Shown: positions 9,571 through 54,083 of the stretch, piece by piece | Position numbering within the stretch: the first letter of the stretch is position 1 | Layout: each line of letters opens with the position of its first letter | IMG/VR virus record: IMGVR_UViG_3300037400_003188 | Location: 57,014-121,013 of that record | Source: a virus | Taxonomy: Duplodnaviria; Heunggongvirae; Uroviricota; Caudoviricetes | DNA length: 64,000 nucleotides | Direction: 5' to 3' (one strand) | Translations under genes and position numbers: made by a program | Notes under the pieces: model-generated | What the model was told of the DNA's origin: nothing | The model's input: the letters and a program-made list of their open reading frames with translations, nothing else | Database searches by the model: none

Positions 9571-9640
9571 GAAAACTTTTGCAAAGATACAACTTTTTTT
9601 TGATCTATAAAAATTTTGGAGCAAAAATTTTCATTTTCTT
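9571..9640 (-). promoter_or_regulatory. class-B conserved upstream element, copy 1, between tRNA genes
   Basis: gcaaagatacaac...tctataaaaattttggagcaaaaattttcatttt, one of 7 near-identical copies. The minus strand reads TATCTTTG, which matches TAnnTTTG. Confidence 0.5.
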
Positions 9641-9714
9641 GCAGGTGCGGTAGGATTCGAACCCACGAAGACTTTCGTCCACAGTTTTGGAGACTGCTCG
9701 CGTTGGCCACTTGC
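9640..9714 (-). tRNA. tRNA-like gene (anticodon arm unresolved)
   Basis: The acceptor arms GCAGGTG / CACTTGC pair with one G-U. T-arm GGATTCGAACCCAC. The internal folding was not resolved by eye. Confidence 0.3.
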
Positions 9715-10158
9715 ATACACACCAGTATTAAAAAGATACCCTGAGAAGATTTTGTTTCTATGTTTCTATCTACCCAGGGTATTTGTTTGTTATATTTACC
9801 AATCTACTTTTAGTTAACAGAACACATAGAACAAGTTGAACGTCTAAACCAATAGCCGCCTTTCAATCCGTTATATTTGAAACACTTATTCATCATGTTA
9901 TTCTTTTTGTTTTAAAATTAATTACTACCCATTTTTTTAATTTTATTAATCTGTTCCCATATTATTTATGGTATTTTGTTTTCTTTTTCAATTATAAATA
10001 TACAAATAATTTAAAAAATATCAATATAAACTGATTTTTTTATTATTTTTTTTTGATCAACTTTTATTTTTACTCCTTTGACTAACTTGTTTTGTTACAA
10101 GATATACAAATTCGACAAACACTACAAATGTAATTCTCTAATATAATACCTTTCATAA

Positions 10159-10458
10159 TTATCGATGCGAACCACCTTCGCTTGGTCTTTTATTCCAGTT
10201 TAAGTGATATGTTTTAATTGTATCATTGCCATACGTGTGATATACCTCTACGTAATGCGCCTTTCCGTCCAATACATCGCCCTCTGTTGGCGTTTCGCCA
10301 ACCATTATCCCGCCAATTGTGATAAAGATCATGAATGGGATCCATGCCCATAACCAATAAGCATTCCACGAGGCAAATGTCATAGTGGTGCAAAATATTA
10401 ATCCCGTTACCGACATAGCAAGGAAAATAATTCCAAGTACAAATTCTACTGTTATCAT
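10159..10458 (-). CDS. small membrane protein
   Basis: 99 aa with two to three hydrophobic segments. Confidence 0.4.
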   Translation of the reverse strand: MITVEFVLGIIFLAMSVTGLIFCTTMTFASWNAYWLWAWIPFMIFITIGGIMVGETPTEGDVLDGKAHYVEVYHTYGNDTIKTYHLNWNKRPSEGGSHR

Positions 10459-10475
10459 ATTCTGTCTTATTTTTT

Positions 10476-10721
10476 TTAAAATCCGTAATAATCTCTTGTA
10501 ATGTAGTTGTCGTCTCCAAGAACCAACTTCTTCACATCATTAGCAAATCTAGTTTGTTTAGAAAGAATATCAATTGCATCGTTGATAGTCGTATTCCCAA
10601 CTTTGCCCAGTGCTTTATATAGGCTTTCTAGTATGCTATTAATCTCATACTCGCGTTCTAACTGTTCGCTTTCCTCTCTTGTTATAGAGAAAGATTTGTT
10701 TTTATTAAAATCGTATTCCAT
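10476..10721 (-). CDS. hypothetical protein
   Basis: 81-aa ORF. Confidence 0.35.
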   Translation of the reverse strand: MEYDFNKNKSFSITREESEQLEREYEINSILESLYKALGKVGNTTINDAIDILSKQTRFANDVKKLVLGDDNYITRDYYGF

Positions 10722-10726
10722 GTTGT

Positions 10727-11320
10727 TTATGGTACAAAGTACTGCACCGCATTATTTATTATTGTTAATATATCTAATAATTCGTCTTTTGTTACAAATT
10801 TTTGAATTACTCCAGATTCAAAACTGTTAACCTCTTTAACATTCGCGCATTCGCCAATTTTCCAGAATAGTATTTTGCCTTCTATTGGCACGATTTGTAT
10901 TTTAGCATCAGTTGTTTTTGATAAATGGTCAGATAATCGTATTTTAAAACTGTGTACGGAAAAATATACACTTTGCTCTGATTTACTCTTATTAACGCTA
11001 AACTTTGTTAACGCGCGTTGCATTACGTTTGCTAGAGTAAAATCGTCGATATCATTTTTTAGTTTAAATACGGTTTGTTTTCCTTCTTTTTGTGGTATGA
11101 ATGAAACAATATCGCGGTCTGGATCTTTTGGAAACCCAGTAGTACCATCTTCATTCAAGAAACCACATCCGCAAAAATGATATTCATAGTTAACACCATC
11201 TTGTGTTATTTGGCAACGAGTGAAACCATCACTTGAAAACTTTATCCCATTTCTAAGGACAAATGCACCTTTGAGTTCTCCACTAATAACCTGTTCTGCA
11301 ATTTTTTTAAAATTATCCAT
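10727..11320 (-). CDS. hypothetical protein
   Basis: ORF 10727..11356 trimmed to MDNFKK. The annotated N-terminus MYLCTRFQNL is translated from the class-B upstream repeat via a non-ATG start. Confidence 0.45.
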   Translation of the reverse strand: MDNFKKIAEQVISGELKGAFVLRNGIKFSSDGFTRCQITQDGVNYEYHFCGCGFLNEDGTTGFPKDPDRDIVSFIPQKEGKQTVFKLKNDIDDFTLANVMQRALTKFSVNKSKSEQSVYFSVHSFKIRLSDHLSKTTDAKIQIVPIEGKILFWKIGECANVKEVNSFESGVIQKFVTKDELLDILTIINNAVQYFVP

Positions 11321-11328
11321 ACACACTA

Positions 11329-11396
11329 AATTTTGAAATCTGGTGCAAAGGTACAATATTTTTTTAATATATAAAAATTTTGGGGAGAAAAAAAAT
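11329..11396 (-). promoter_or_regulatory. class-B conserved upstream element, copy 2
   Basis: aaatctggtgcaaaggtacaat...atataaaaattttggggag, immediately upstream of 10727..11320. Confidence 0.5.
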
Positions 11397-11743
11397 CAAA
11401 ATAATGGTTTTCTCGCTCTTTTTAACTGCTCTTCGAACCACTTCTTATGTTTTTCAAATGATTCTTTGATGATTTCATTGCGATGTTCATTAATGTAGTT
11501 ACGTGCGTCAACTTCTGTTTTATGAACTAATTTCTCTGGAACATCAAGAAAACACCCAGGACCCTTTGTCCAACTTCCATCATACAAACCGTTCTCATGT
11601 TTGGTTATTATTACTTCATATACTTCTGGTTCGTTAAGCGGCGCATTTTGGTCACCGTGTACATCATGCTCTATTAAATAAGCAATGTCGTTAACTTTAA
11701 TTTCTTTATCTACAATATCCATAATCTCCATCATTTTGTTCAA
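11396..11743 (-). CDS. hypothetical protein
   Basis: 115-aa ORF. Confidence 0.4.
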   Translation of the reverse strand: MNKMMEIMDIVDKEIKVNDIAYLIEHDVHGDQNAPLNEPEVYEVIITKHENGLYDGSWTKGPGCFLDVPEKLVHKTEVDARNYINEHRNEIIKESFEKHKKWFEEQLKRARKPLF

Positions 11744-13010
11744 TTATATTCATAAATCTCTCAATTGCATTGTTCTTCGTTAACATACTATCTGTTATTT
11801 CTGTGTCTATTGATACGCCTTCTGCTTTCCTACATCTACTCAATGCTGTGTATAACTGGCCTGTTTGAAATATCTCTTTGATATGTAATACTACGTTGTC
11901 AAATGTTAATCCCTGTGACTTGTGTATCGTTACCGCATAAGCAAGTGTTAGTGGAAATTGTGTACATGTGCCAGTTACAAATTTATTTATGACAGTTTTT
12001 ACTTCACCATTTTCAACTTCACTTGTTACGTCGTACTTATAACATTCAGTTTTTTTTGCTTCAAGGAAAACTATATTTTTTTCGTCTGTCTCTATCTTAA
12101 TGTATTCTGGCTTAATGTCTCTTACATATCCAAGTGTACCATTATGATATTGTCCAGCATCCGTATCATTCATAGTAATCATTACCCTGGCACCTTCTTT
12201 TAACCTTAATTCAAGGTCGCAAATTGCGTTCTTTGGATTAAAGTCTCCTGTTAGCACGGCTCTAATGATATGTGTTGGGTCTCCAAGTCTTGCTACATTA
12301 TATGATTCAGCCACATTTCGTAAAGCACATAAGTGAATAGCCTTGTCTGGCTGTTTGTTTTTCATCATCTGCTTTACCATCTGTTTAGATTTGTCAGACA
12401 GTTTGCCGTCTCTAACATCTCCTAATAAGTCAATAAAATCTTTGTCTGTTTGTCTAAATATCTCCGTAAGTTCAACAGTGTGAAATTTTGTATTCTCAAA
12501 TACCCTTGCGTTAAAGAAATAGAAGTCATCATAAAACTCAGACAACACATTGCCCTCATCATTTGTTACAACTGGCGGCAATTGCATCATATCGCCAAAC
12601 ATAATAACCTGTATGCCACCGAATGCCAGACTCGATTTTTTTACACTACGAAGTCTTCTATCTATAGCATCCATAAGGTCGCACCTAACCATAGATATCT
12701 CATCAATAATTAGTATCTTAATCTTTCTGAGAATTGCTTTCTTCGCTGCTGGTAATTTCCAGGAAAATGGTTCTTCTGGATTTTGAACACCTATATCTAA
12801 TGAAAAGAGATTGTGTATGGTTACGCCTTCTGCGTTAATAGCAGCAACACCCGTAGGTGCTACTACTACACATTCTCCTTTGTGTTCACTGGTAATTTGT
12901 TTTAGTAATGTTGTCTTACCAGTACCAGCCTTACCTGTTATAAAGAGATTTTGTCCACCATCAATTAAAGAATATATGTCATCCTTTCTTTCTTCCATTA
13001 CTCCTAACAA
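11706..13010 (-). CDS. Dda/RecD/PIF1-family 5'-3' DNA helicase
   Basis: Walker A (ITGKAGTGKTT), Walker B (LIIDEISMV), and the C-terminal motif VTIHKSQGLTFDNVVL typical of RecD/PIF1/Dda helicases. Confidence 0.85.
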   Translation of the reverse strand: MLGVMEERKDDIYSLIDGGQNLFITGKAGTGKTTLLKQITSEHKGECVVVAPTGVAAINAEGVTIHNLFSLDIGVQNPEEPFSWKLPAAKKAILRKIKILIIDEISMVRCDLMDAIDRRLRSVKKSSLAFGGIQVIMFGDMMQLPPVVTNDEGNVLSEFYDDFYFFNARVFENTKFHTVELTEIFRQTDKDFIDLLGDVRDGKLSDKSKQMVKQMMKNKQPDKAIHLCALRNVAESYNVARLGDPTHIIRAVLTGDFNPKNAICDLELRLKEGARVMITMNDTDAGQYHNGTLGYVRDIKPEYIKIETDEKNIVFLEAKKTECYKYDVTSEVENGEVKTVINKFVTGTCTQFPLTLAYAVTIHKSQGLTFDNVVLHIKEIFQTGQLYTALSRCRKAEGVSIDTEITDSMLTKNNAIERFMNIIEQNDGDYGYCR

Positions 13011-13290
13011 CTACTTCTTTCTTAGCAATCTTTGGTTTTTCGATTAATTCTTGCTCTTTTTTATACAAAATTTCTTGTCTCAATTCTTTTAAGATATCAA
13101 CTTTTTTTGACGACAAAGCATCTACTTCTTTTTGTAATTCTTTGGTTTTTTGGTAATTTTCAGAGCAGATAATACTCATTTCATTTCCATCGGCTTCTAT
13201 CAATATTTGAATAGCCTCCAACTGATTTAATAGATCAAATAATTTATTGTTCATATCTCTTTTCGAATATATAATTTTCAAATTCATCAC
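12979..13290 (-). CDS. hypothetical coiled-coil protein
   Basis: 103 aa, rich in K, E and L. Confidence 0.35.
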   Translation of the reverse strand: MMNLKIIYSKRDMNNKLFDLLNQLEAIQILIEADGNEMSIICSENYQKTKELQKEVDALSSKKVDILKELRQEILYKKEQELIEKPKIAKKEVVVRSNGRKKG

Positions 13291-13549: not shown

Positions 13550-13552
13550 AAT

Positions 13553-28842: not shown

Positions 28843-29136
28843 TTAATATTGTTCTTTACTAAATTCTGGTTTATATGTTAATGTAATTCCAGTATGCTCA
28901 ATAGGGTCATCGGATGGAACGAACATTACTTTATTAGTATGAATCATTTTCCGACATAATTCATCATCGGCCCCACAATCAATAAATAATTCTCGATTCC
29001 AATATAAATCTCCATTGCGTTCGAATACTTCTTTGTAAATTATTTCATTGATAGTATCAATAAATTCAATTTGGCTTTCTGGACGATTTTCAAGAAATTT
29101 ATTCAATTTGTTACAAGTTTTTTTAAATGTTTTCAT
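28843..29136 (-). CDS. hypothetical protein
   Basis: 97-aa ORF. Confidence 0.35.
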   Translation of the reverse strand: MKTFKKTCNKLNKFLENRPESQIEFIDTINEIIYKEVFERNGDLYWNRELFIDCGADDELCRKMIHTNKVMFVPSDDPIEHTGITLTYKPEFSKEQY

Positions 29137-29138
29137 AA

Positions 29139-29780
29139 TTACAAACTAAATATTTTTCTTAATGCTAATTTATCTGCTTGCTTGATTGCCGATACTTCTA
29201 CTCGCTTTTCATTCACCTTAATACACCCTCCAAAATTCCATAACTCACAATAACGAAGTATAGACTCTAACTGTGCATCTGTAATATCTGGTGTGTATCG
29301 TTCATTACTACCAAATCCTGCTTGGAAATGTGCCAGATAACGTATATTGAAACCATGCACCTTAACGAACCCCGCGCGTTCCAAACCATAATCAATAGAC
29401 ATACCCGAACCATGTAAAAGTATATTATCCAGTTCTTCACCGTATAACTTAAGCATTAAAGGTGCAAGTTCAATATGTGCAAGACCGCATTCAGATGACT
29501 CCATGAGATAGAACTTACCGTCTGGTGCAATATAACCAACAGGGTTGATGAACTTTTCTGGTTCATCACTACCGCATTCAGATACCATTACATCAGCAGG
29601 ACCAGTGAAATGTAATTGTCCGTAATCAAGAAGTCGTTCAATCTCACGCTCTACCTTGCACTCATCATCCAAATCTTCGGGCACTTCAAGATAGATAGTT
29701 GCTTTTGCATAACGCTTCTTGTGAGAGTTTGGTAAATATTCATCACTCATAAAATCTTTTCTAGCCATAATCTTATCCAT
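29139..29780 (-). CDS. hypothetical protein
   Basis: 213-aa ORF. A class-B element lies upstream. Confidence 0.4.
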   Translation of the reverse strand: MDKIMARKDFMSDEYLPNSHKKRYAKATIYLEVPEDLDDECKVEREIERLLDYGQLHFTGPADVMVSECGSDEPEKFINPVGYIAPDGKFYLMESSECGLAHIELAPLMLKLYGEELDNILLHGSGMSIDYGLERAGFVKVHGFNIRYLAHFQAGFGSNERYTPDITDAQLESILRYCELWNFGGCIKVNEKRVEVSAIKQADKLALRKIFSL

Positions 29781-29797
29781 TTCTTTTTTAAATTCTG

Positions 29798-29850
29798 CTG
29801 CAAAGATACAACAATTTTTTGAATTATAAAAATTTTGGGGGGTAAAAAAT
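29798..29850 (-). promoter_or_regulatory. class-B conserved upstream element, copy 3
   Basis: ctgctgcaaagatacaac...attataaaaattttgggggg, upstream of 29139..29780. Confidence 0.5.
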
Positions 29851-29858
29851 GTAATTTA

Positions 29859-30125
29859 TCAATTTTCACCATCCACACATCCGTTGCATTCTCCGCAATC
29901 ATAGCACTCACAATCATCACATAAACATATAGGTTCCTCCTTGCCATCCCATTCAAGCGCGGCCTTTATGCTTGGTTTTGGCATATCGTCTGCGCTAATC
30001 AATAACGCTCCACTAACAACATTTAAATCAATGTTAACTTTATATCCATTGTTAAATAACACCACTGGTGTATTGTCCTTTATTACTTCAATTGCTTGTT
30101 TTAAATCTCCAACTGTTTTTTTCAT
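29859..30125 (-). CDS. small Cys-rich protein
   Basis: 88 aa. C-terminus CLCDDCECYDCGECNGCVDGEN. Confidence 0.35.
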   Translation of the reverse strand: MKKTVGDLKQAIEVIKDNTPVVLFNNGYKVNIDLNVVSGALLISADDMPKPSIKAALEWDGKEEPICLCDDCECYDCGECNGCVDGEN

Positions 30126-30152
30126 TTTGCTTCTTCTATTTTATCTATCTGA

Positions 30153-30689
30153 TTATTTTCGTCCAAAATTTGCTTTTGACCACAATCTCATACACCCTAA
30201 ACGCATAAGTGCATTTTCTTCCTCAAGAAATAGTTTGTATTCTTTATTGTTACTACTTGTATATCTTGCTAATTCAGGGGCGCTTGTTTTAGTACCAACA
30301 AATTCATTTGGGTCTTCATCATAGAATAACAACCCACATGGATACTTGTCATATGGCCACCCATGTTCCTTTGTGTATGGTTCTGACCATTCGTAATTCG
30401 CTAAAAACTCGTCACACTTGTCAACTATTGATTTGGGTACTACGTAGTAGAATTTAAATACTTTCCCTTCAAAGTGCGTTGTGCCTTTTTTAAAGTCAGC
30501 CAAAAAATCACTCCAACTTCTTTTTATCTCGTATTCATATAGGTAGTGATTTTGTATAGAAACGAGATCGGCTTCATGTGTTTTAAAATACCCCCATGAT
30601 ACATTCGGTATAAATACATTCTTCCTTATGTTGAACGTATTAGCAATTGCTGCCTGTATCTCCCTCACTGTCAGATTTGTTTCCAGCAT
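30153..30689 (-). CDS. hypothetical protein
   Basis: 178-aa ORF. Confidence 0.4.
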   Translation of the reverse strand: MLETNLTVREIQAAIANTFNIRKNVFIPNVSWGYFKTHEADLVSIQNHYLYEYEIKRSWSDFLADFKKGTTHFEGKVFKFYYVVPKSIVDKCDEFLANYEWSEPYTKEHGWPYDKYPCGLLFYDEDPNEFVGTKTSAPELARYTSSNNKEYKLFLEEENALMRLGCMRLWSKANFGRK

Positions 30690-30808
30690 TATTCTTTAAT
30701 TTTTTAAATACTACATTTACAAATAATACGGCAACGGTACCAATGCCAGCCTCAATAAACATATTACTTCCAACGAGACACCCATTTTGATCAACAATAT
30801 AACAATCG

Positions 30809-31261
30809 TCATTTCTGATTATATCTTTTAACAATCTCAATCAATGGTTTGTTCATGTTTCCTTCGCTATCCATAATTCCTGTGAAACAGTTCATAACCA
30901 TCAATGAGACATCGCCTGTGACGTATGGAGGAAGCCATCCTATTACTGGTATGCCCTTCCCACAAGCATAACCAATTTCCCATGGAGTTCCAGAATTACA
31001 TGTATGTCCTAAATACATTGCAACTACTAATGTCGCACTATCCAGAGCCTCTTTGTCGGCCATATATACGCGACGTGCCCATTCTTCGTTAGGCAAATAC
31101 CATGTACCATCCTCCTTTAAAAAGTCTCCTGGAACTTTAAACTCCATCGGAATGTAAAGTTCGACCGTTGGATAGCGTTTCTTAACTACTTCAATCATGT
31201 GAAGAAGAGCCAATCGGTCACAATCTCGATTGAATGACCCTGCAATGTAAATTTTATCCAT
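30809..31261 (-). CDS. nucleoside 2-deoxyribosyltransferase-like protein
   Basis: 150 aa. MDKIYIAGSFN...EIGYACGKGIPVIGW resembles the Rcl / nucleoside deoxyribosyltransferase fold motifs. Confidence 0.5.
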   Translation of the reverse strand: MDKIYIAGSFNRDCDRLALLHMIEVVKKRYPTVELYIPMEFKVPGDFLKEDGTWYLPNEEWARRVYMADKEALDSATLVVAMYLGHTCNSGTPWEIGYACGKGIPVIGWLPPYVTGDVSLMVMNCFTGIMDSEGNMNKPLIEIVKRYNQK

Positions 31262-31274
31262 ATATCATTAAGTT

Positions 31275-31338
31275 TTAAAATCTGATGCAAAGATACAAAA
31301 AATATCTGACATATAAAAATTTTAAGGAAAAAAAAATA
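31275..31338 (-). promoter_or_regulatory. class-B conserved upstream element, copy 4
   Basis: aaaatctgatgcaaagatacaa...catataaaaattttaagg. Confidence 0.5.
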
Positions 31339-31384
31339 AGCGGACAAAATATTATTGCCCGCCCATTTTAAGTATAATAGTATT

Positions 31385-32584
31385 TTACTTACTCATCTCG
31401 TTAACGAGGTCCTTCATTTGCTTTAGCGCAATTACATCCATTGGGTTTGCCCCGTGTCCAGAACCGCCATTGACTACAATACTTGGCCACTTTGTTCCAG
31501 CAAGTGCCTGCGCAACACCAGTTTTTGTCTTGAACTCCCACTCGGCGCGTTCCTGTGGAGTAAGACCAGCAGCCACCTTAAGACGGTTTGCCTCTGCCTG
31601 TGCTTGTCCCTCTGCAATAATCTTTTTCTTTTCCTCTCCAGCCTTCAGTGCTGCTAGACGGGCAACCTCATACTCCTGTTCTGCCTTTGTTACTTCAACT
31701 GCCTTAATCTTCTCTTGCTCCCACTTAGCCTTTGCTGCTTGTGCCTTACCTTCTTCCTCGGCACGAATTGCCTCTTGTTGAGCGGCGAGGGACTTGGCCT
31801 TAGATGTTTGTACCAACATATTAGCCTCTTGCTGTTGTTCGATTTGTTTCTTAACACGATCCTCATAATCAATTTTAGATACGGAAACCTGCCCAATTTC
31901 TATACCATAATATTCAAATGGAGACTTTTCTGAGCGTCTAAATCCACCTGCGGACAAAGAATCTGGAATAAGAACTGCAAATTTCTGTTGTTTTGTTTCA
32001 CCCGTGATTGGGTCTAACACCTCTGAAATCTTAACAGCAGTTGTGTAAACACCATTATTCAACTGGTCTGTAATATACTCAATGAGGTTGTTTTTCTTCT
32101 CGGATACGCTCTCATATGCTGACATAAGCGGTCCTGATGCGTATACAACCTTTACAACTGTAGGACGAACCAAATCATTCATAAGACGTTCTTTTCCGTT
32201 GTAGTCGGTTTGAATGCGAAGCATATGTTCGCGGTCTGTAGGTAGTTTAACTCGAAGAGAGCCAAAGATTTCACCATTAGATGCATCATTAAAAATAACA
32301 GGAATAGGTTCACCATTGCCCTGTGCACCAAACCAAAGTTGCTCAGTCTTGTGGTATTCTGTAGTACGCCCAAATTTCTGTGCATACATACCTGGTGCAG
32401 ACCAAACATCCATTGTACCAGTAATAGGTACCTGGTTTACAACAATGTCTTCATTATCCACATCCTCAACGAGTGAGCCGATGCAACAAAGGAAAACAAT
32501 TACTAAAATTCCAATAACGGAAGAAAGCACAATTTTTTTCATCGGGAGTGTGCGAGTCTCCTCTTCATTGCGATAATAATTCAT
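31385..32584 (-). CDS. SPFH / band-7 (HflK/stomatin/flotillin-like) membrane protein
   Basis: 399 aa. N-terminal transmembrane helix, central SPFH-like region, and a C-terminal Ala/Glu/Lys-rich coiled coil (AAQQEAIRAEEEGKAQAAKAKWEQEK) typical of HflK/flotillin. Confidence 0.6.
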   Translation of the reverse strand: MNYYRNEEETRTLPMKKIVLSSVIGILVIVFLCCIGSLVEDVDNEDIVVNQVPITGTMDVWSAPGMYAQKFGRTTEYHKTEQLWFGAQGNGEPIPVIFNDASNGEIFGSLRVKLPTDREHMLRIQTDYNGKERLMNDLVRPTVVKVVYASGPLMSAYESVSEKKNNLIEYITDQLNNGVYTTAVKISEVLDPITGETKQQKFAVLIPDSLSAGGFRRSEKSPFEYYGIEIGQVSVSKIDYEDRVKKQIEQQQEANMLVQTSKAKSLAAQQEAIRAEEEGKAQAAKAKWEQEKIKAVEVTKAEQEYEVARLAALKAGEEKKKIIAEGQAQAEANRLKVAAGLTPQERAEWEFKTKTGVAQALAGTKWPSIVVNGGSGHGANPMDVIALKQMKDLVNEMSK

Positions 32585-32618
32585 GTCTTTAAAAATGTTA
32601 AAAGTTAAAAAATGTTAA

Positions 32619-32801
32619 TTAATTCAATTTACTAAACCATTTTGTCCAGCCATAGAACGGGATGAGTGTCTTTCTAAAAGAAAGGTTACGGCCAAACATT
32701 CCTGTGAACAAGTGTGCAATCACTGTTACGTAGTAGATTGCTAGGATGATGAGCAATGCCCATACAATCATTAATACAAATCTCATAATTTTACCAATCA
32801 A
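32619..32801 (-). CDS. small membrane protein
   Basis: 60 aa, hydrophobic. Confidence 0.3.
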   Translation of the reverse strand: MIGKIMRFVLMIVWALLIILAIYYVTVIAHLFTGMFGRNLSFRKTLIPFYGWTKWFSKLN

Positions 32802-33111
32802 ATAAGTTATTATTGTTATTATTTTTGTGACATTTACAATCTGGGTCGTGCACTACACATGTAGACTGATATTCTCCGAAACGGATATATTGATGACCAT
32901 TGTATTCAAATTTTATTACGGGCACCTTATACTTTCCAGGGGACATACCATCTTTATAGTATATATATTCAACTGGTTTAGGAATCTCATCATCATTTGG
33001 CACGTGTTTTGATGACGGAACACAACCAACAAATAGCCCTAATATCATCATTGCAATCGCAAATATAAGCAATACAATAAAAAACTTTCTTGTAATGTGT
33101 ATATTTTTCAT
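32791..33111 (-). CDS. small membrane protein
   Basis: 106 aa with an N-terminal transmembrane helix. Confidence 0.35.
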   Translation of the reverse strand: MKNIHITRKFFIVLLIFAIAMMILGLFVGCVPSSKHVPNDDEIPKPVEYIYYKDGMSPGKYKVPVIKFEYNGHQYIRFGEYQSTCVVHDPDCKCHKNNNNNNLFDW

Positions 33112-33329
33112 TTCCTGTAATAATTATAGTTTTTAATGTTAACAATCATTGTGTCTTTTTTAGTTGCAATCTCCGAAAGATGATCACAACGTTCTTCTTG
33201 GAGTTCTACTTTCTTCTCCAATTCAACGCACTTGTCGTAAGCAATTGTGTTAAAGTCTTTTGTGATATATATGTATATGAAAAGTACGAAGATTAGTGCT
33301 GTATTTATTCCATTCCAAATGTATTTCAT
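33108..33329 (-). CDS. small membrane protein
   Basis: 73 aa with an N-terminal transmembrane helix. Confidence 0.3.
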   Translation of the reverse strand: MKYIWNGINTALIFVLFIYIYITKDFNTIAYDKCVELEKKVELQEERCDHLSEIATKKDTMIVNIKNYNYYRK

Positions 33330-33334
33330 GACAT

Positions 33335-33538
33335 TTAATTTTTACCGTAATAAATCATATTATGTTTAAACTCATATATATTTGTTTCAACAACTGGCAC
33401 TTCAATTGTATCGATATTGGATTTGTCGTATATTTCTGCATCGTGAAAAAAATCACTTATACAAAATGTGGCGACAGTCACTAAGCCTATAATAAATGCG
33501 ACAATAAGCATTTTCATTAATGTTGTTTCGTTTTCCAT
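33335..33538 (-). CDS. small membrane protein
   Basis: ORF 33335..33574 trimmed to MENETTLMK. The MYLCTRFQNL N-terminus derives from the class-B repeat. Confidence 0.35.
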   Translation of the reverse strand: MENETTLMKMLIVAFIIGLVTVATFCISDFFHDAEIYDKSNIDTIEVPVVETNIYEFKHNMIYYGKN

Positions 33539-33544
33539 ATTCGT

Positions 33545-33612
33545 TAAATTTTGAAATCTGGTGCAAAGGTACAATAATTATTTGACATATAAAAATTTTA
33601 GGGAAGAAAAAT
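33545..33612 (-). promoter_or_regulatory. class-B conserved upstream element, copy 5
   Basis: aaatctggtgcaaaggtacaat...catataaaaattttagggaag. Confidence 0.5.
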
Positions 33613-33632
33613 GCAGTTTTCACCGAATTTTC

Positions 33633-34208
33633 TTAAAAAGGTTTCTCATTTTTAATTTTTTCTATCTCCTCATCGAACTCTTTCTGCGCTTGTTGAAGCC
33701 GTTTATTAGCCTCTCGTACCCTATCAAGCCTTTCCTCTGGCCAATTATCTGGAGCACCCATACAATAACTGGAATAGTTCATATAGTTACAACCAGTAAG
33801 TTCGTATACCTCAAGATTCTTCCAGTACCATTTTTCAAAGTAACTCTCTGGTATATTATTGTCGACGTCGTAACGTATATCGTCCATACCGACAAATAGG
33901 TCGCCAATGTTTGCTACTGTTCCAGGATCGTCTCCTACCCACACGTACTTATCGTAAGTATAACCATGCTTCCAGCAGAACACCTCTAAATACTCATTAC
34001 ATACGTCTTTCCACAATGCTTTTCTTGCCTGGTTCGAGGTAAAAGTTTCAATATCAGTTTCAGCATATGTGTCAATATGCCTTTTTACGGTCTTTGCCGC
34101 ATCTTCAAGGCCTTTACTAATGGTAACAGTATCTTTCTTTGGTTCGATTACTTTACCAAACATCCACCCTTGGCGTTTTTTGTTTGTTTCTGTTTTTCTT
34201 CTATTCAT
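33633..34208 (-). CDS. hypothetical protein
   Basis: 191-aa ORF. Confidence 0.4.
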   Translation of the reverse strand: MNRRKTETNKKRQGWMFGKVIEPKKDTVTISKGLEDAAKTVKRHIDTYAETDIETFTSNQARKALWKDVCNEYLEVFCWKHGYTYDKYVWVGDDPGTVANIGDLFVGMDDIRYDVDNNIPESYFEKWYWKNLEVYELTGCNYMNYSSYCMGAPDNWPEERLDRVREANKRLQQAQKEFDEEIEKIKNEKPF

Positions 34209-34335
34209 AATACATTATTGTTTTCCCATCATTATGTTTCGGATTATCTGTTTTAGATATTCAATTTCGTTAGACGCCCTATTTATGGAATCATCTGAAA
34301 CCTTTGGCGGATTTATATATTCAAAATTTCCCATG

Positions 34336-37241: not shown

Positions 37242-37565
37242 TTATTTATTGTTATTTTCTTCTATTTTTTCTCTAAGTTTAGACTCTGGAAGGCCGCCTA
37301 ATGTTCTATCTACCTGGAACTGGCCTTTGTAAAATATTAGTACTGGTATCGATGATATGGAATATTGCTCTAATAATTCTTCTTCGCAGTCATCAATATC
37401 AATTTCATAAAAAGTCACATTTTCATATGTCGGTTCAATATTATTTATTATATCGTGTAGCATCCTGCATGGGCCACACCAAGTACCATAAAATTTTATA
37501 ACATGTAAATTGTCGTCTTTATTTAAAGCCTCATTCAATTCACTAATTGTTTTGATTTGTTTCAT
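37242..37565 (-). CDS. thioredoxin
   Basis: 107 aa with the WCGPC active site and thioredoxin-like length. Confidence 0.85.
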   Translation of the reverse strand: MKQIKTISELNEALNKDDNLHVIKFYGTWCGPCRMLHDIINNIEPTYENVTFYEIDIDDCEEELLEQYSISSIPVLIFYKGQFQVDRTLGGLPESKLREKIEENNNK

Positions 37566-38541
37566 ACTCTGTTTGTATTTCTTTTATTTTTGTTATTAAT
37601 TCATTTTTTGTTTTTAACATCGGAACCCCGCAACAGTATTCATATTTAGTATTTGTATAATATATGAAATGTGGTTTTAGATGTTCAATACATAAATTAT
37701 ATTTTACGATATCTCTATCTTCCCTTAATTTTAATCTATTATTATTTTCGTTTTTAAATCTAAGTTTCTCAAAATGTTGTTCGCCTTGGCACTCGATTAT
37801 GGTATTTAAAGACGGTATATAAAAATCTAATTTCATTTTATCTTTATATACTAGCCAATCAAATGTTTTTTGCTCAATAAACTCAATTCCGCACTCTGTT
37901 AGTATTTCATTTACTTCTTTTTCCAACTTGCTTTTACCTCTACAACATTTTGGAGTAAAACGATAATGATTATTTGGTTCTTGCCAAAACTCTCCATGTT
38001 CTGGACATATTATGCATACCTTTGTGTGGGCATTTATATAATTTACTTTTGAATAATCATATTTATTGTTGTAAATTTCATTACTCTTCTCAATAAAATC
38101 ATTTTTTTCTTTTTTTTGATTACTTGCACAAAACTGGCACCCTCTTCCTCTTAATAAATCGCTTGCATTCATATAAAATATTCCATGCTCTTGGCATGTT
38201 ACTGGAATTTTAAGCGACATATTTTTATAGCCAGTAATGTCATATTTATATTTACGTCCTAATCTTTCATCTACTATATTAATCTTGTTTAAAAATTGTT
38301 CTTTGTTAATGCTATTTTTTGAACATAAATCACAACCGTAGCCAAGCATATGACTAGTTGGTATTTGCCAAAATTCTCCGTGCTCTGGACAAATTATACA
38401 CACTTTTGTGCTAGTGTTTACATATTCGATCTTACTATAGTCATATTTATCACCATGGACTTTTCTTGCACGTTCTATAAATTCTTCCTTTGTTATTTTT
38501 TTTCCCATCGTATTTATATATTTTTCTATATATAAATACAT
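37543..38541 (-). CDS. homing-endonuclease-like protein with zinc-ribbon repeats, paralog of 19001..20170
   Basis: Repeats GDKYDYSKIEYVNTSTKVCIICPEHGEFWQ... occur three times. C-terminus DFYIPSLNTIIECQGEQHFEKL. Confidence 0.55.
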   Translation of the reverse strand: MYLYIEKYINTMGKKITKEEFIERARKVHGDKYDYSKIEYVNTSTKVCIICPEHGEFWQIPTSHMLGYGCDLCSKNSINKEQFLNKINIVDERLGRKYKYDITGYKNMSLKIPVTCQEHGIFYMNASDLLRGRGCQFCASNQKKEKNDFIEKSNEIYNNKYDYSKVNYINAHTKVCIICPEHGEFWQEPNNHYRFTPKCCRGKSKLEKEVNEILTECGIEFIEQKTFDWLVYKDKMKLDFYIPSLNTIIECQGEQHFEKLRFKNENNNRLKLREDRDIVKYNLCIEHLKPHFIYYTNTKYEYCCGVPMLKTKNELITKIKEIQTEYETNQNN

Positions 38542-43468: not shown

Positions 43469-44236
43469 TTATTTATCATCTTGTAACGTTATCCTATTTC
43501 TGTGAAACCTATATGATTTCTTATTTAAAGAGCCAAAATTATCAGTTAATGTATGACAATTTGGGCATAATAATTCTAAATTATTGATTGTGTTATTAGT
43601 ACAATTTCCGTCTTTATGATGAATTTCTAATTGTATAGTATGAGTGTATTGATTCATTTCACCCCATCCACATTTTTGACATTTACAATCATATTTATTC
43701 ATTAGATATTTACGTATAAATAGTGGTATCTGTGTGGCTCCTCGTAGAAAATTTTCCCCATTCAGCCATCTTTTTATTTTATTCTTTTCATCAAATTCGT
43801 TTTTGCATTTGTTACAACAAAAATCTTTATTTCCGATAAATAACTTTCCGCATTGTTTACACGTTTTTAGTTCCTTTTTATTTTTTTGGGACAGCGTATT
43901 TGATGTTTTTAACCTCGATTCAATTGAACGCGTTCTATTAAAATTATTATAAGAGGCAGAACATGATTTTGAACAAAATTTATTATCACGCTGTTGATAT
44001 GATAATTTTTTCCCACAATACTTACAATATAATGGTTTATTATTATAATCTTCTTCAGTTATTTTCTTATCTATATAATCATATATATTAATATCAAAAT
44101 GTTTGATAACTTTTTCTATGAATCTATAGCCACTTCCATTATTTTTATATCCAAATTTTCGCAAAAAATCCATTTTTGTTTTACATTCTCGTAAAACATT
44201 AATAACTTCATCTTTTTTTATTTCGTTTATATCCAT
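43469..44236 (-). CDS. HNH homing endonuclease
   Basis: 255 aa, Cys-rich. HNH motif LEIHHKDGNCTNN...NLELLCPNCH. Confidence 0.8.
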   Translation of the reverse strand: MDINEIKKDEVINVLRECKTKMDFLRKFGYKNNGSGYRFIEKVIKHFDINIYDYIDKKITEEDYNNKPLYCKYCGKKLSYQQRDNKFCSKSCSASYNNFNRTRSIESRLKTSNTLSQKNKKELKTCKQCGKLFIGNKDFCCNKCKNEFDEKNKIKRWLNGENFLRGATQIPLFIRKYLMNKYDCKCQKCGWGEMNQYTHTIQLEIHHKDGNCTNNTINNLELLCPNCHTLTDNFGSLNKKSYRFHRNRITLQDDK

Positions 44237-47141: not shown

Positions 47142-47366
47142 AAGGTGCAAGTTTTCGAATTTAGGGTTACACGAAACTCGCTAATATTAACCTTTTCAAG
47201 AATAAGAATGACTAGTTCCTATTTTGTCTTGTCAACCAATTTATTTAGGCCCTTTCCCATGTACCACTTCAACTCTTCTTTAAGTTATCATATAGTTAGT
47301 CAAACTATTACTTTCACTTAACGTGGAGCAACCTGCTTAATTGGTAATACGTGTTGCTTCAGATTG

Positions 47367-47454
47367 CTTCTGGAACGGGACTCGAACCCGCAACGGCCTC
47401 TCGGCTCTCTCTAGCGTGACAGGCTAGCATGTTGACCATTTACACCATCCAGAA
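47367..47454 (-). tRNA. type-II-like tRNA with GTC (Asp) anticodon
   Basis: The acceptor arms TTCTGGA / TCCAGAA are perfectly complementary. T-loop ACTCGAA. Anticodon stem CTAGC/GCTAG with loop CTGTCAC. The variable arm is about 19 nt. Confidence 0.4.
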
Positions 47455-48668: not shown

Positions 48669-49273
48669 AATTTGCTCAAAATCGTAAAACTTAACAAGTA
48701 TTATGTGTTGTCTCTCAGGTAACGCTCTCATAATAAATTTGTTAAGAAAGGGGACTCGGTTAATGAGCAGTTATACACGCTTTCTCCCTTTTTTAGAGTT
48801 TGTTCTGAACACCAGATTTAAAGTGTTTACTCACTAAATTAGGTAAGCCTTACTGTCCACAAACGTCCTATGGACCCTCCGACCTTAACTGGTGACGTTA
48901 TACCAACCTCAGGCTATACCTAAAAAAGAGATACGGCTCTAAACCACGCACACGTAGAGGACTCAACGTCGTATCGGAACATTATGGAGTTACCCATTTT
49001 GTACCATAGTCCTGCGCTGATAGCAACCTTATAAATCAGCAGTCACAAATTTAGTACCTTTTACGGTTTTGTGTCTTTTCCCATCAAGGAAATGATGGTG
49101 GGGGTGGTAGTAATTTTATGGTTGATTAGACCCATGCGGTAAAAACTACAAACCTTGCGGCTTTTCATATTGAAATGCTTAGTCAGGCGGGAATCGTATC
49201 GCTAATCGCCACTAGCGTCCATCTTATTGAGGGAGAGTCAACCGACGTTAAATCGTAGTCGGAATTTGTGATG

Positions 49274-49366
49274 CTGGCAGGGTGGGATTCGAACCCACGG
49301 TGGATTGTTAATCATCGGCTTAACAGGCCGAACCGTTCGGCCACTACGGCAACCTACCAATCATAC
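49274..49366 (-). tRNA. Ser-like tRNA with an apparent 8-nt anticodon loop
   Basis: T-arm GTGGG-ATTCGAA-CCCAC. The D-region TGGCCGAACGGTTCGGCC resembles Ser tRNAs. The anticodon hairpin is TGTTAA-GCCGATGA-TTAACA. The acceptor was not resolved. Confidence 0.3.
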
Positions 49367-49671: not shown

Positions 49672-50568
49672 TTATTTTATATCTTTTTTCCGATAAGGTA
49701 AACCGTAATATTTACACCACTTACTAATCGTTCGATCAGAAACACCGAATTCTTTACCTAAAGCCCTAAATGAATATTTTTTAACCAACTCTAATAACTT
49801 TTCTTTTGCTGGTCGTTCAACTTTACGCTGCTTTAAACTCGCTTCATTCTGAGCACTTGTTCTTCCATTGTCTAATCGTTCTTTTTTAATATAACCTTTC
49901 GGTTTCTTAAATATCCCAAATCTTTTACCACTTTCTATTTTTCTAAAATTATCCAAATTTAAAGTCTTGTCTATTAAATTCCAATCATTCTTAACAGTAT
50001 CCTCTGTATAACGAATAATCTTCCAGCCTAAACTTTGAATTAATTCATCTTTTTTATTATCTCTCTCTTGTCTTTCATTTTCAATTTCATGTTGTGAGCC
50101 ATCTATCTCTACAACCAATTTAATCTCATTAAAAGCAAAATCAGCATAATATGGAAAAAAAGATTTTTCTCTTTCTATTTCGTATTTTTTATTAATACCT
50201 CTATCTTTTAGATATTTAATAAAACATTTTTCTGGGTACGATGTATTATTTTTTGATAATCTCCACGCTGTTTGTTCTGGATGTTCTTTCATAAATTTTA
50301 AACGGGCCTCCCTAACTTTTGATTTTGCCTCTTCGGAGAGCCTAAATCTTTCTGGATATTTTTTATGTGCTAACTTATTAGCCTCTGAAAAATTACGAGT
50401 TATACCATGTAATAATTTTAACCGAATCCATTGATTCGCTTTAATATTATACTTATCCGCAATCTCTCGTATCGATAAGCCTTCTAGGTACTCTTTTCGC
50501 ATTTTTTCTTTCTCTTTTTCAGAGAATAAATAGTCATACTTTGTATTGTTTTTATGTGCCATATTCAT
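49672..50568 (-). CDS. HTH plus Vsr/DUF559-like endonuclease (putative homing endonuclease) inside the tRNA array
   Basis: 298 aa. N- and C-terminal helix-turn-helix-like segments (LSIREIADKYNI; GKEFGVSDRTISKWC). Central VVEIDGSQH...GWKIIRYTE resembles the Vsr/DUF559 PD-(D/E)xK motif. Confidence 0.5.
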   Translation of the reverse strand: MNMAHKNNTKYDYLFSEKEKEKMRKEYLEGLSIREIADKYNIKANQWIRLKLLHGITRNFSEANKLAHKKYPERFRLSEEAKSKVREARLKFMKEHPEQTAWRLSKNNTSYPEKCFIKYLKDRGINKKYEIEREKSFFPYYADFAFNEIKLVVEIDGSQHEIENERQERDNKKDELIQSLGWKIIRYTEDTVKNDWNLIDKTLNLDNFRKIESGKRFGIFKKPKGYIKKERLDNGRTSAQNEASLKQRKVERPAKEKLLELVKKYSFRALGKEFGVSDRTISKWCKYYGLPYRKKDIK

Positions 50569-50653
50569 TTATATTTCTATATATAAATACATTTTAATAC
50601 CAAAAAACGAACACTTTTTTTCCAAAAAATAGAAAATAAACTGATGTGTTTAG

Positions 50654-50740
50654 TAGCGCCAACGAGATTCGAACTCGTGAGGAGATTACTCTCCAAGCAG
50701 CGTGAAAGGCTGCCGACCTAAACCACTAGTCGATAGCGCC
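50654..50740 (-). tRNA. type-II-like tRNA with TTC (Glu) anticodon
   Basis: T-arm ACGAG-ATTCGAA-CTCGT. The acceptor arms GGCGCTA / TGGCGCT pair with two G-U. Anticodon stem GCAGC/GCTGC with loop CTTTCAC. The variable arm is about 18 nt with a GGAGA/TCTCC stem. Confidence 0.4.
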
Positions 50741-51284: not shown

Positions 51285-51365
51285 CTGATGCTTTTGGACT
51301 TTAACCAAATTCACTAATAGCATCACACATCTTGCCAATGCTTAACACCAGCCAAAGAGTAATAC
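51285..51365 (-). ncRNA. tRNA-like element E2 (paralog of 48165-48240)
   Basis: Hairpin TTTGG-ACTTTAA-CCAAA. Shares the ttcactaatagcatcac and tgccaatgcttaa blocks with E1. Confidence 0.3.
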
Positions 51366-51397
51366 AATTCGAGATTTTCTCCCCGACCAGGTTTATT

Positions 51398-51424
51398 TAA
51401 GTTGTTTTCCTTCAACTATAAAAT
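51398..51424. repeat. hairpin motif, copy 2
   Basis: aagttgttttccttcaactataaaa. Confidence 0.5.
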
Positions 51425-51583
51425 ATTAACACTATCCGCATCATAAGCCTTCCATGGATACTTATGAATTATTCGAATGATAAAACATTTGTTTTGTGAA
51501 CCACCACTATTTTTCAAGATATACGGTTGTGGATATGTTAATATAGTAAAATAACTTCAGTTATAATACTTTTATTAGTTTTT

Positions 51584-51607
51584 AAAGTTGTTTCATTCAA
51601 CTATAAG
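51584..51607. repeat. hairpin motif, copy 3
   Basis: tttttaaagttgtttcattcaactataag. Confidence 0.45.
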
Positions 51608-51716
51608 TTTGAGAGGAATAGGCTCTCACCTCTCTATGTGGTCTTCTGCCATCCACTTTGTTACTCTTTGGCTCGTACTGCCGCCTATAAGCGCTTTTGG
51701 ACTTTTATTGGTTTTT

Positions 51717-51740
51717 GTAAGTTGTTTTCCTCAACTAATG
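51717..51740. repeat. hairpin motif, copy 4 (diverged)
   Basis: gtaagttgttttcctcaactaatgg. Confidence 0.4.
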
Positions 51741-52480
51741 GGTCTACTGACCTTGAAGATTCTCACTTCACGTTTAAAACGTCTTCTAAAGTTTACAATC
51801 ATCATCTAGAATCGTGATTAGAAATCAGTAGATGGGTTAAGTGCCCGAAGCATCCCAGTTCTAACTTTTATCTTCGCATCACCAGCGCAGCACTTATAAA
51901 AACAGAACAGTAAATTTGCGAACTACGGACTTGACTAAGCGCTTATTAGAAATATAAAGACTATCCATTGTCAATCGGGGCTTACCTGAGATTATTTACT
52001 CAAGCGATTTCTCTACCACCTCGCCTGGAGAACGATTCCAGATTATCAAACTATTTCCTTACACGTTCATCGTTTTAACATACGATTTCCTTATACCTGT
52101 CATGTTGCGTTGTACATTACGGCTCCTCGCGGAATAGGTTCGTCATACCTACGAAGGGGAAACCCCAAAAATTCGCCGAAACCATCAAAAGCGACAAACT
52201 GCGTATCTCGACATCTCATAGAATATTACATTGACGCGTTATAATATTCAATCTCGCCCTATTTAGGTTGCTAGTACTGTTACTGAAACTAAATTGAATT
52301 AGTTTTGATTGTCGGGTAGGCGAGATTCGAACTCACGGCCTCCTGAACCCAAATCAGGCATCTTAGACCAACTGGACCACTACCCGTTTTTGTCTAGATA
52401 GAGAGACTCGAACTCCCGATACCTTGCTTCCAATGCAAGAATGTTACCAACTCCACCATATCTAGATTTTTTTAGTTTTT

Positions 52481-52509
52481 TAAAGTTGTATGTCCTTCAA
52501 CTATAAATC
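52481..52509. repeat. hairpin motif, copy 5
   Basis: ttttttaaagttgtatgtccttcaactataaatc. Confidence 0.45.
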
Positions 52510-52789
52510 AGGCGACGATTGAATTAAAATCAATAAGTTATACTTTAATCTAGAATTGTATAACCATATGCTTATTGGGCATATAAGTGCTACCTTTTCA
52601 TCACCAATATTATTAAAACCATGTGTTTTAAACCATGTACCGCCTCTGGGACTTGAACCCAGACGAACATCACTGCCCAAAAGATTTTCTTTACTACTTT
52701 ATATTACTATAACAAAATAACAGCATCGTCTAACGACTTCTCGTTCAGCGGGTCTTTAGCCTACTAAGGGAGTCAAACCCATTTTGTTA

Positions 52790-53150
52790 TTTCTTGTAGT
52801 CTGGGATTTATCTTAGCCATATTAGAATCTTGCAAGATATAAATTACACGTTCACTGCCTTAATGGTTTATCAGAGAGCTCATTGTTCTGTAATTTATAA
52901 TTCTAACTTAGGTTCCTCCTGTAAATTCTCTACACACTGTCTATCTTCGTGGCACTACAATCTCATTACTATTATTTCAAGTAAGAGCAAGCCCATTCCA
53001 CTATTTTAACATTGGCTCGGTATTATCCAAACGCGTTATTGGTTAGCGCTACGCCATTTCGTATTAGGTTGGATTTCCACCGAATTAGGGAGATTCTACT
53101 ATGGAATTTCTTGCCATAGCACTCAAATTTCTTAAGTCTTTCTTGTCTAC
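52790..53150 (-). repeat. about-360-bp noncoding element, copy 2 (paralog of 45340-45700)
   Basis: tcttgtagtctgggatttatcttagccatattagaatcttgcaagat, ttctaacttaggttcctcctgta...ctctacacactgtct, acattggctcggtatta, ccgaattagggagattctact, cactcaaatt. Confidence 0.5.
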
Positions 53151-53443
53151 CTATTCCAACAAGGCGGCAAAAGAAGATAGTTAAAATGCGTTTCACAACG
53201 TGGAACTAACATATCTTTTGATCAAAACGAGTAATCATGGTTACGCTAGGATAAAATCCGTTGGATGCAACATGTTTCAGAATTGACAGGTTCCATATAT
53301 AAATCTTATTCACTTACCCAACCTTAGTCTGCAGAATTTGCTATGTCGGCCAGAGTGTAATAAGAAAAATAATCAATTTAATTTTCTTTAGCCAATACGT
53401 CAAAGATCATATTCGAAAAATGCTCGTAAAAACTTGCTTGTCT

Positions 53444-53516
53444 CGAAATCTGCTGCAAAAGTACAACAAATTTTTGACATATAAAAATTTTGGAGCAAAA
53501 ATTTTCATTTTTTTTT
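53444..53516 (-). promoter_or_regulatory. class-B conserved upstream element, copy 6 (tRNA-associated variant)
   Basis: aaatctgctgcaaaagtacaac...catataaaaattttggagcaaaaattttcatttttttt. Confidence 0.5.
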
Positions 53517-53517
53517 A

Positions 53518-53589
53518 GTGGCGGACCTCGATTCGAACGAGAACTTGAGATTATGAGACTCGTATGTTACCAGTTACACCAATCCGCAA
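53518..53589 (-). tRNA. tRNA-like gene with a CTCATAA anticodon-type loop but a weak anticodon stem
   Basis: The acceptor arms TGGCGGA / TCCGCAA are near-complementary. T-loop ATTCGAA. The anticodon stem has only 3 bp. Confidence 0.3.
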
Positions 53590-53924
53590 TATTCGTGATT
53601 CGGGTGAGACTCGAACTCACAACCTACAGATTAGTCTGCTACTCTCGCTTTTATACGAGCCAACTCCATGAGTTGTTGTAGTCTGGACTCTTTCATTACC
53701 ATGAGACTTAAATCTTTTAGGCACTTCCTATAGAGTCTCTACGCCATTTATCAGATTACTCTGAACTTAGTAAGCCATCGCCAACTCCTACGTCTCCGTA
53801 AGATAGGTTTCTGTTTCTTAGGGAAGTTCTACATTCGGAGTTTCCTCCGATGCACTCCTATTTTCAAAGTCTGTTGCGCTATCCATTGCGCCACCGAACC
53901 ATTATGTTTCAAAGATCACTTTTG

Positions 53925-54004
53925 GAAAAGTATCGGGATTCGAACCCGATTGTTCCTCACTTACGTAATCAAGGCGAGTACGTTATCTGTACCTAACTAC
54001 TTCT
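53925..54004 (-). tRNA. tRNA-like gene (anticodon arm unresolved)
   Basis: T-arm ATCGGG-ATTCGAA-CCCGAT. The acceptor arms AAAAGTA / TACTTCT are near-complementary. Confidence 0.3.
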
Positions 54005-54008
54005 CTGA

Positions 54009-54083
54009 TTTTCAAATCTGGTGCAAAGGTACAACTTTTTTTTGGAATATAAAAATTTTGGAGCAAAAATTTTCATTTTTTTA
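54009..54083 (-). promoter_or_regulatory. class-B conserved upstream element, copy 7 (tRNA-associated variant)
   Basis: aaatctggtgcaaaggtacaac...aatataaaaattttggagcaaaaattttcattttttt, upstream of the 43-54 kb tRNA array. Confidence 0.5.

Follow-up and report, generated by a model that had tools for sequence, protein, structure and literature searches.

Eight copies of a candidate Bacteroidota-type promoter precede genes and tRNAs in a 64-kb stretch of an uncultivated tailed phage

A stretch of 64,000 nucleotides from the tailed-virus record IMGVR_UViG_3300037400_003188 (positions 57,014 to 121,013), referred to below as the window, carries a repeated upstream element, named class B, in eight copies. 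Each copy is probably, at a rough probability of 0.8, a complete and near-consensus promoter for the host polymerase with its primary sigma factor (the Bacteroidota sigma-A/sigma-ABfr type). A sequence-only reading of the window, made without database searches, had proposed a phage-specific promoter class with a conserved leader. The promoter part of that proposal was supported by an exact -7 box, by the co-orientation of all eight copies with the next gene, by their filling of intergenic gaps, by a short and fixed distance to the start, and by retention at orthologous sites, whereas the core of the element did not prove to be specific to phages. Judged from its sequence, class B is a real repeated promoter of a known Bacteroidota type, whose conserved footprint is unusually long and whose -33 block is T-rich. 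As a feature it is ordinary, and it represents neither a new kind of system nor a new mechanism.

Copies of the element in the window

The seven copies listed in the sequence-only reading were all recovered. The core TGCAAAGRTACAA was located on the plus strand at 9580, 11344, 29799, 31286, 33562, 53454 (with one mismatch) and 54022, giving seven matches against 0.21 expected, a number reached in 0 of 100 shuffles. A profile built from the copies retrieved each of the seven at E = 3e-15 to 4e-21. The profile search of the window also returned an eighth copy that had been overlooked, which lies on the plus strand (model match 57769-57842, E = 1.8e-10) and begins at the stop codon of the open reading frame (ORF) upstream.

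Positions within the element were numbered by setting the T of TAnnTTTG as -12, after the position of this box in Flavobacterium psychrophilum, where it lies at -12 to -5 (PMC9723704). Read in the direction of the downstream gene, the eight copies aligned without gaps; the spacing is thus fixed, and the variable spacer N(5-12) of the sequence-only reading was superfluous. The element had been put at about 60 bp, and the measured conserved span was about 64 nucleotides (nt; -52 to +12), or about 72 nt in the three copies associated with tRNA clusters. The extension ggagcaaaaattttcatttt described for those three copies was found in every one of them (9618-9637 and the equivalent positions); this shared upstream stretch of 20 nt reads AAAATGAAAATTTTTGCTCC on the sense strand.

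All eight copies are intergenic and co-oriented with the next gene or tRNA, and the intergenic gaps are almost wholly taken up by them. The predicted start site lies 13-22 nt before the ATG in the window, and the TA of the -7 box 25-34 nt before it. For the tRNA copies, the mature 5' end of the tRNA follows 11-16 nt past the predicted start site.

The copies preceding protein genes on the minus strand begin with the one at 11330..11393 (-7 box TACCTTTG at 11346-11353; predicted start 11341), whose gene has its true ATG at 11320, leaving a 5' untranslated region (UTR) of 21 nt. The next, at 29785..29848 (-7 box 29801-29808; predicted start 29796), is followed by a gene for a 213-aa protein with its ATG at 29780. 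The copy at 31272..31335 (-7 box 31288-31295; predicted start 31283) precedes a nucleoside 2-deoxyribosyltransferase gene (ATG 31261), and that at 33548..33611 (-7 box 33564-33571; predicted start 33559) a membrane-like ORF of 67 aa (ATG 33538). On the plus strand, the eighth copy at 57776..57839 (-7 box TACCTTTG at 57816-57823; predicted start 57828) stands before a 228-aa gene whose ATG is at 57841.

The tRNA subclass, delimited as -60 to +12, is on the minus strand throughout. Its copy at 9566..9637 (-7 box TATCTTTG at 9582-9589; predicted start A 9577) would serve tRNA-Cys (9477-9562, minus strand). The copy at 53440..53511 (-7 box TACTTTTG at 53456-53463; predicted start 53451) is followed by about 270 nt, after which come the gene for tRNA-Leu(UAA), which has an intron, and the remaining tRNA genes of the array. 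The putative targets of the copy at 54008..54079 (-7 box 54024-54031; predicted start 54019) are a tRNA-like gene, an intron-containing tRNA-Lys(UUU) and tRNA-Met.

Anatomy of the putative promoter

The primary sigma factor of Bacteroidota recognises a -7 element TAnnTTTG and a TTTG near -33, with an AT-rich spacer between them (PMC7366714). In the flavobacterium, three variants of the sigma-A motif have been described (PMC9723704). The motif TA(C/T)CTTTG had been equated with the Bacteroidetes -7 box, and the box TAnnTTTG was indeed exact in all eight window copies, as TA(C/T)CTTTG in seven and as TACTTTTG in one.

A consensus was drawn from 54 distinct copies, most of which come from contigs other than the window. 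It runs from a T-run at -51..-45 through C-44 (0.96), a pyrimidine, C-42 (0.89) and a second pyrimidine (the CyCy stretch) to AAAATTTTTATA at -40..-29, tC-AAAAAA at -26..-19, T-15 and G-13, and TAYCTTTGCA at -12..-3. The start region follows with C-1, A+1, G+2, A+3, wTT and AAAA at +8..+11. The leader had been called conserved, which was borne out for the start site and the leader segment, over a span that reaches about +11. The mode of the 5' UTR length over the 54 copies was 21-22 nt.

A counterpart of the -33 box had been overlooked by the sequence-only reading. The window copies have TTTTT at -36..-32 in place of a TTTG near -33, a match of three in four bases from which the G is absent, and 6% of the 54 family copies have a G at -33 and read AAAATTTGTATA. 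In related phage loci (L136-L139; 82-87% protein identity) the spacer and -7 box TCAAAAAAAAGTTGTATCTTTGCAT are the same, but ATTTGG takes the place of the T block, with TTTG at -36..-33. The same layout with TTTG at -36..-33 was found in the tRNA-array promoter of the crAss-like IAS virus, AATTTGCATATATAAAATATTATTAGTACCTTTGCACCAGATTAC, and in a promoter of a porcine gut microvirus, AAAATTTGCATATATTAAAAAAAAGCAGTACCTTTGCA. Since these loci, the 6% of family copies, the IAS virus and the microvirus all carry TTTG at that place, we regard the T5 run as the probable counterpart of the -33 box. The spacer between the two boxes is AT-rich (ATAtnTCAAAAAAnnnTTG), and the bacterial promoters that share the core are A-rich there as well.

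In sum of likenesses, class B agrees with the Bacteroidota sigma-A promoters in the exact -7 box, the distance to the start codon, the AT-rich spacer and a T-rich block where its relatives have TTTG. The 5' UTR length is close to the mode of 23 nt found in Bacteroides thetaiotaomicron (PMC7366714, PMC9723704). One difference lies in the extent of conservation, which in class B covers the whole of -52..+12, whereas generic host promoters have two short boxes only.

Core-sharing promoters in bacteria and other phages

Bacterial genomes, one per species, were scanned with the pattern AAAATTTTTAT-N17-TAYYTTTGCA. At least 120 loci matched, and about 86% of the matches listed were from Bacteroidota, chiefly gut and rumen Bacteroidales. 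Thirteen of the listed loci lie no more than 150 nt upstream of a tRNA gene, and others precede genes for acyl carrier protein, RF2 (prfB), HU, L31, EF-Tu, GroES and LepA. Near-identical versions of a 38-mer, AAAATTTTTATATGTGCAAAAAAAAGTGTACCTTTGCA, were present before different housekeeping genes in different Bacteroidales genomes, and a single genome of a rumen Bacteroidales (L045) combines the two variants of the -33 block, T-rich and TTTGG. Thus the -40..-3 layout (AAAATTTTTAT, 17 nt, TAYYTTTGCA) is not phage-specific, and because the same core precedes bacterial housekeeping and tRNA genes, it appears to be the host's own strong-promoter form and no invention of the phage. When every TAnnTTTG site in 0.88 Mb of bacterial loci was put into one general logo, the noise left no -33 signal visible.

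The layout, in this case with TTTG in its canonical -33 place, recurs in one crAss-like phage and in a microvirus of the gut. The IAS virus and the porcine gut microvirus were the nearest cases in annotated phage records, with AATTTGCATAT and GTACCTTTGCA on either side of an A-tract; only the IAS virus copy, which is directly upstream of a tRNA array, goes on with CCAGATT. Unlike class B, both have the canonical TTTG at -36..-33 and are without the T-run/CyCy module, and neither is related to the window phage. A literature search returned nothing specific on phage promoters of this type. The term phage-specific holds only for the T-run/CyCy module, for T-15 and G-13, and for the first ~11 transcribed bases, within the set of phage contigs compared here.

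Several points weigh against the assignment to the host primary sigma factor. The evidence is that of sequence, from which recognition by sigma-A, the exact start site, the strength and the timing are inferred. The base at -33 is T in all eight window copies, not the canonical G. Positions -40..-29 and -12..-3 are invariant among the 54 copies partly because the search patterns demanded it, and for some contigs the patterns demanded TTG and CAGA too; the T-run/CyCy module, the A-tract and AAAA at +8..+11 were free of this constraint. The T-run/CyCy module, T-15/G-13 and the CAGA start are conserved at 0.78-0.96 in the phage set and not in the bacterial promoters sharing the core, in which C-44 stands at 0.31, C-42 at 0.24 and G-13 at 0.36, the upstream region is A-rich rather than T-rich, and the CAGA start region is missing. 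Since these positions are not conserved in bacteria, a constraint beyond generic sigma-A recognition would seem to act on the phage copies.

Conservation among related contigs

A related contig (L160, 1-6331) is syntenic with 28864-34262 of the window at about 83% DNA identity and has its copies at orthologous sites. The orthologous pairs keep the quirks of individual copies, such as CCTT in place of CyCy and a TTTTTTG spacer at the 31.3-kb copy, and the functional positions are unchanged across all copies. Because copy-specific quirks are shared between orthologues while the functional positions stay constant, the conservation is, on this sequence comparison, a matter of selection rather than of recent copying.

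The full extended form was found in three copies in a further relative (L141), in the IMG/VR contigs 3300037400_003220 and _003376, and in 18 metagenome contigs. Among the latter, Ga0326512_10002179 (L165, 1-14503) has 13 copies in 14.5 kb, all on a single strand, before small ORFans and a ParB-like gene; no protein similarity between it and the window was detected. The 41-kb contig DEIW01000003.1 (L043/L099), binned with Bacteroidales bacterium UBA2764, has five copies (nhmmer E <= 5e-4), and in four of these the phage-type module upstream is complete (TTTTTTCTTCCCCAAAATTTTTATA or a near variant). The contig is possibly that of a phage or a mobile element and could give a clue to the host. 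A tblastx comparison of the IMG/VR loci and the loci from metagenome-assembled genomes with the window gave no common proteins, and a scan with the 197-aa protein gave no matches. Among annotated phages the window has no near match, a look-up of identical proteins was empty, and the IMG/VR contigs hit by the pattern are distinct from it. More distant relatives, recognised by deoxyribosyltransferase and phosphoesterase genes of 37-50% identity, are without the element.

The -33 block divides the relatives by group, with ATTTGG in L136-L139 and AAAATTTTTATA in the window and L141, the spacer and the -7 box being alike. The extra constraints of the phage set could reflect the polymerase preference of one host, a phage-encoded factor, or the common descent of a portable cassette.

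Predicted mechanism and timing

In the mechanism that we propose, host polymerase would bind the -7 box TAYCTTTG at -12..-5, extended to TnG-TAYCTTTG-CA. The T5 run at -36..-32 would stand in for the canonical -33 TTTG, the A-tract spacer would join both boxes, and the T-run/CyCy/AAAA stretch at -51..-37 sits where an upstream (UP-like) contact would be expected. Transcription would start on a conserved A, five bases past the G of TTTG, yielding RNAs that open with AGAUUU-AAAA. A short, unstructured, A/U-rich 5' UTR of 13-22 nt or a tRNA leader of 11-16 nt would follow, and such a 5' UTR would fit translation without a Shine-Dalgarno sequence. The copies at 54.0 and 53.4 kb probably supply the tRNA array of about 10 kb.

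The extended consensus, reaching to about -50, is a likeness to the early promoters of phage T4 and to bacterial UP elements, and the order of a T-run, 3-4 bases and an A-run resembles the UP-element consensus. The polymerase lineage is different, and an alpha-subunit contact or an ADP-ribosylation effect would be hypothetical for class B. In competition with host promoters, strong early promoters of phages prevail. Since host housekeeping promoters have a matching core, class B would be expected to be active on naked phage DNA with no phage protein present, as an early or constitutive class; for the same reason it can be proposed as an early class that uses host polymerase alone, with about even chances.

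A second promoter-like class, tttTTGTATATTTGt (the TTGTATATTTG class), was found at about nine gene starts and is without a conserved -33 region. Its sites are at 4030, 17204, 24675, 41561, 43033 and 54982 on the minus strand and at 55154, 58588 and 61657 on the plus strand, and the genes behind them include the primase-like and DnaK genes; where the coding strand switches, the sites at 54982 and 55154 make up a divergent pair. The presence of two putative promoter classes in the window fits the idea of temporal classes.

Alternative explanations

Besides acting as promoters, the repeats might persist mainly as portable regulatory cassettes, that is, as patches of homology for the gain, loss or swap of genes, both inside one genome and from phage to phage on a shared host, in the manner of the PeSLs (promoter-early stem-loops) of T4-type phages. 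PeSLs are repeated host-consensus early promoters with an AT-rich upstream region that lie in hyperplastic regions (PMC2839356). We consider this possible but doubtful. In the comparison of the window with L160, three of the four indels begin directly after a class-B leader: the 213-aa gene (29139-29780) is missing from L160, an extra 80-aa gene in L160 has a leader-like direct repeat on its flanks, and L160 has an extra gene-promoter-gene block. Promoter positions vary among the relatives, and the 13 copies in 14.5 kb before ORFans on a contig without protein similarity to the window would suit a mobile cassette. However, the comparison is that of a single syntenic genome pair, the far breakpoints of the indels are not promoter copies, and insertions behind a promoter could persist through selection for expression rather than through recombination.

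The stem-loop that defines PeSLs was also sought. A hairpin next to the copy at 31272-31335, G+C-rich, followed by a T-run and resembling an intrinsic terminator (31333..31369, minus strand), was significant at z = -5.3, and its T-run is the T-run of the promoter copy itself. For the other seven copies z was -1.4 to +0.7, and a PeSL-type upstream hairpin was rejected for these seven of the eight. Membership of class B in the PeSL family thus fails on the defining stem-loop, though PeSL-like behaviour may apply. The two are alike in being many near-identical host-consensus promoters with an AT-rich upstream region (PMC2839356), in preceding small genes of unassigned function in variable regions of a large myovirus, and, in the one pair of relatives compared, in adjoining indels. 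They differ in that class B has no consistent stem-loop and a different host promoter type; recombination and mini-circles would be hypothetical for class B.

A more elaborate variant, which we hold with still less confidence, would see in the T-run/CyCy module at -51..-41, T-15/G-13 and the AGAUUU-AAAA start more than a preference of the local host, namely the marks of a portable promoter-leader cassette that passes between phages which are unrelated but infect the same rumen Bacteroidales host. It would serve as a landing pad for new genes, and the phage might also act on it by shifting what the polymerase prefers, for instance through an encoded ADP-ribosyltransferase.

Dependence on a phage factor is unlikely. 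Under this explanation host sigma would read the -7 box, CyCy-AAAATTTTTATA and the T-run would be an activator site of the phage or a preference of modified polymerase, and the class would be timed. In T4, middle promoters have a site for the activator MotA, and Alt ADP-ribosylates the polymerase alpha subunit. The near-invariance of the T-run/CyCy module and of T-15/G-13 in phage copies, not seen in core-sharing bacterial promoters, speaks for such a factor, as do the group-wise difference of the -33 block (AAAATTTTTATA in the window and L141 against ATTTGG in L136-L139) and the second promoter-like class without a conserved -33 region. The window also has a 402-aa ORF with an ART-PolyVal ADP-ribosyltransferase domain (20231-21439, minus strand; E = 1e-14). 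Yet AAAATTTTTAT at equal spacing is common before bacterial housekeeping and tRNA genes, and the single rumen genome L045 has both -33 variants. Sigma, MotA-like and AsiA-like proteins were not seen among the ~38 window ORFs that were scanned, a part of the window, which itself covers 64 kb of a genome that is 230 kb or longer.

That the conserved part is a functional RNA (a 5' leader element, a small RNA or a processing signal) and not a DNA signal is very improbable, even though conservation reaches about +11 and is common to mRNA and tRNA copies. The bulk of the conserved block is upstream of the predicted start site, and the copies are too alike for covariation. The leaders fold weakly: the four on minus-strand mRNAs give -0.6 to -3.5 kcal/mol, and the plus-strand one (c57769) gives -6.0. 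In Rfam only tRNAs passed the gathering thresholds, and nothing lay over the copies in 52400-54400 at E up to 1. RNA structure as the explanation of the leader was rejected on the unstructured leaders and on Rfam matching tRNAs alone.

The peptide MYLCTRFQNL, shared by ORFs 10727..11356 and 33335..33574 when both are read from a TTG, has next to no chance of being a genuine conserved N-terminal extension or signal, since the same DNA precedes tRNA genes and genes in other frames, and both ORFs have an ATG 12 codons on, where a 21-nt 5' UTR predicts it. The sequence-only reading had rightly treated it as an artefact that reads the TTG of TTGTACCTTTG inside the element. It is the translation of TTG-TACCTTTGCACCAGATTTCAAAAT, in which the TTG just precedes the -7 box, and spans the -7 box and the start site. 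The spurious extensions are MYLCTRFQNLVC at 11321..11356 and MYLCTRFQNLTN at 33539..33574, both on the minus strand.

Implications

The host-type promoter interpretation has practical uses. For uncultivated phages of Bacteroidales, the ~64-nt consensus helps to delimit transcription units and to pick the true start codons; gene callers otherwise run ORFs into the promoter, as with MYLCTRFQNL. It indicates that the poorly defined -33 region of Bacteroidota can be T-rich in a fixed AAAATTTTTATA context. Class B could also serve as a strong promoter part in Bacteroidales of the gut and rumen, and as a marker of the host phylum for phage contigs.

Genomic context and further observations

G+C makes up 34.8% of the window, and its tRNA genes, at least 29 in number, all lie on the minus strand. 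Its proteins serve replication and nucleotide metabolism of a phage type and include a DnaK homologue, a DNA repair exonuclease, DNA methyltransferases, several HNH endonucleases, a deoxynucleoside kinase and a nucleoside deoxyribosyltransferase. The 213-aa protein encoded after one of the copies has homologues at 80-93% identity, and the contigs that carry them reach 227 kb and 327 kb. Genes for a family-B DNA polymerase, for T4 gp13-like and tail-sheath proteins and for a terminase are present on these contigs too. The window therefore comes from a large uncultivated myovirus. Many of the related contigs have ruminant or gut sample names. ORFs resembling HNH or homing endonucleases are found at 7329-8309, 37543-38541, 43469-44236 and 49672-50568, among the tRNA arrays and replication genes.

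Five minus-strand tRNA genes of 84-89 nt (Cys, Trp, Asp, Asn and Glu) were drawn by ARAGORN with a stem-loop variable arm, at 9477-9562, 9641-9724, 47366-47454, 49273-49359 and 50653-50740. In bacteria such an arm is normally confined to the tRNAs for Leu, Ser and Tyr. A literature search gave nothing specific on phage tRNAs with long variable arms. The class-B copy at 9.6 kb has one of these genes on either side.

At 54.0 kb, the class-B copy is immediately followed by a tRNA-like gene (53923-54003, minus strand) with a normal acceptor stem and T arm and an aberrant anticodon loop, which ARAGORN reported at a lowered threshold only. The stretch of about 270 nt between the 53.4-kb copy and tRNA-Leu (53169-53440, minus strand) has no ORF, tRNA or Rfam match and, going by the predicted promoter, should be transcribed. 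The tRNA-Leu(UAA) gene (52637-53168, minus strand) has a 445-nt intron in the anticodon loop with a weak group I intron match (17.8 bits), and tRNA-Lys(UUU) (53595-53900, minus strand) has one of 232 nt, likewise in the anticodon loop. The Lys intron region matches DNA of Prevotella Lak megaphages, and also of the crAss-like phage cr115_1, at 69-76%.

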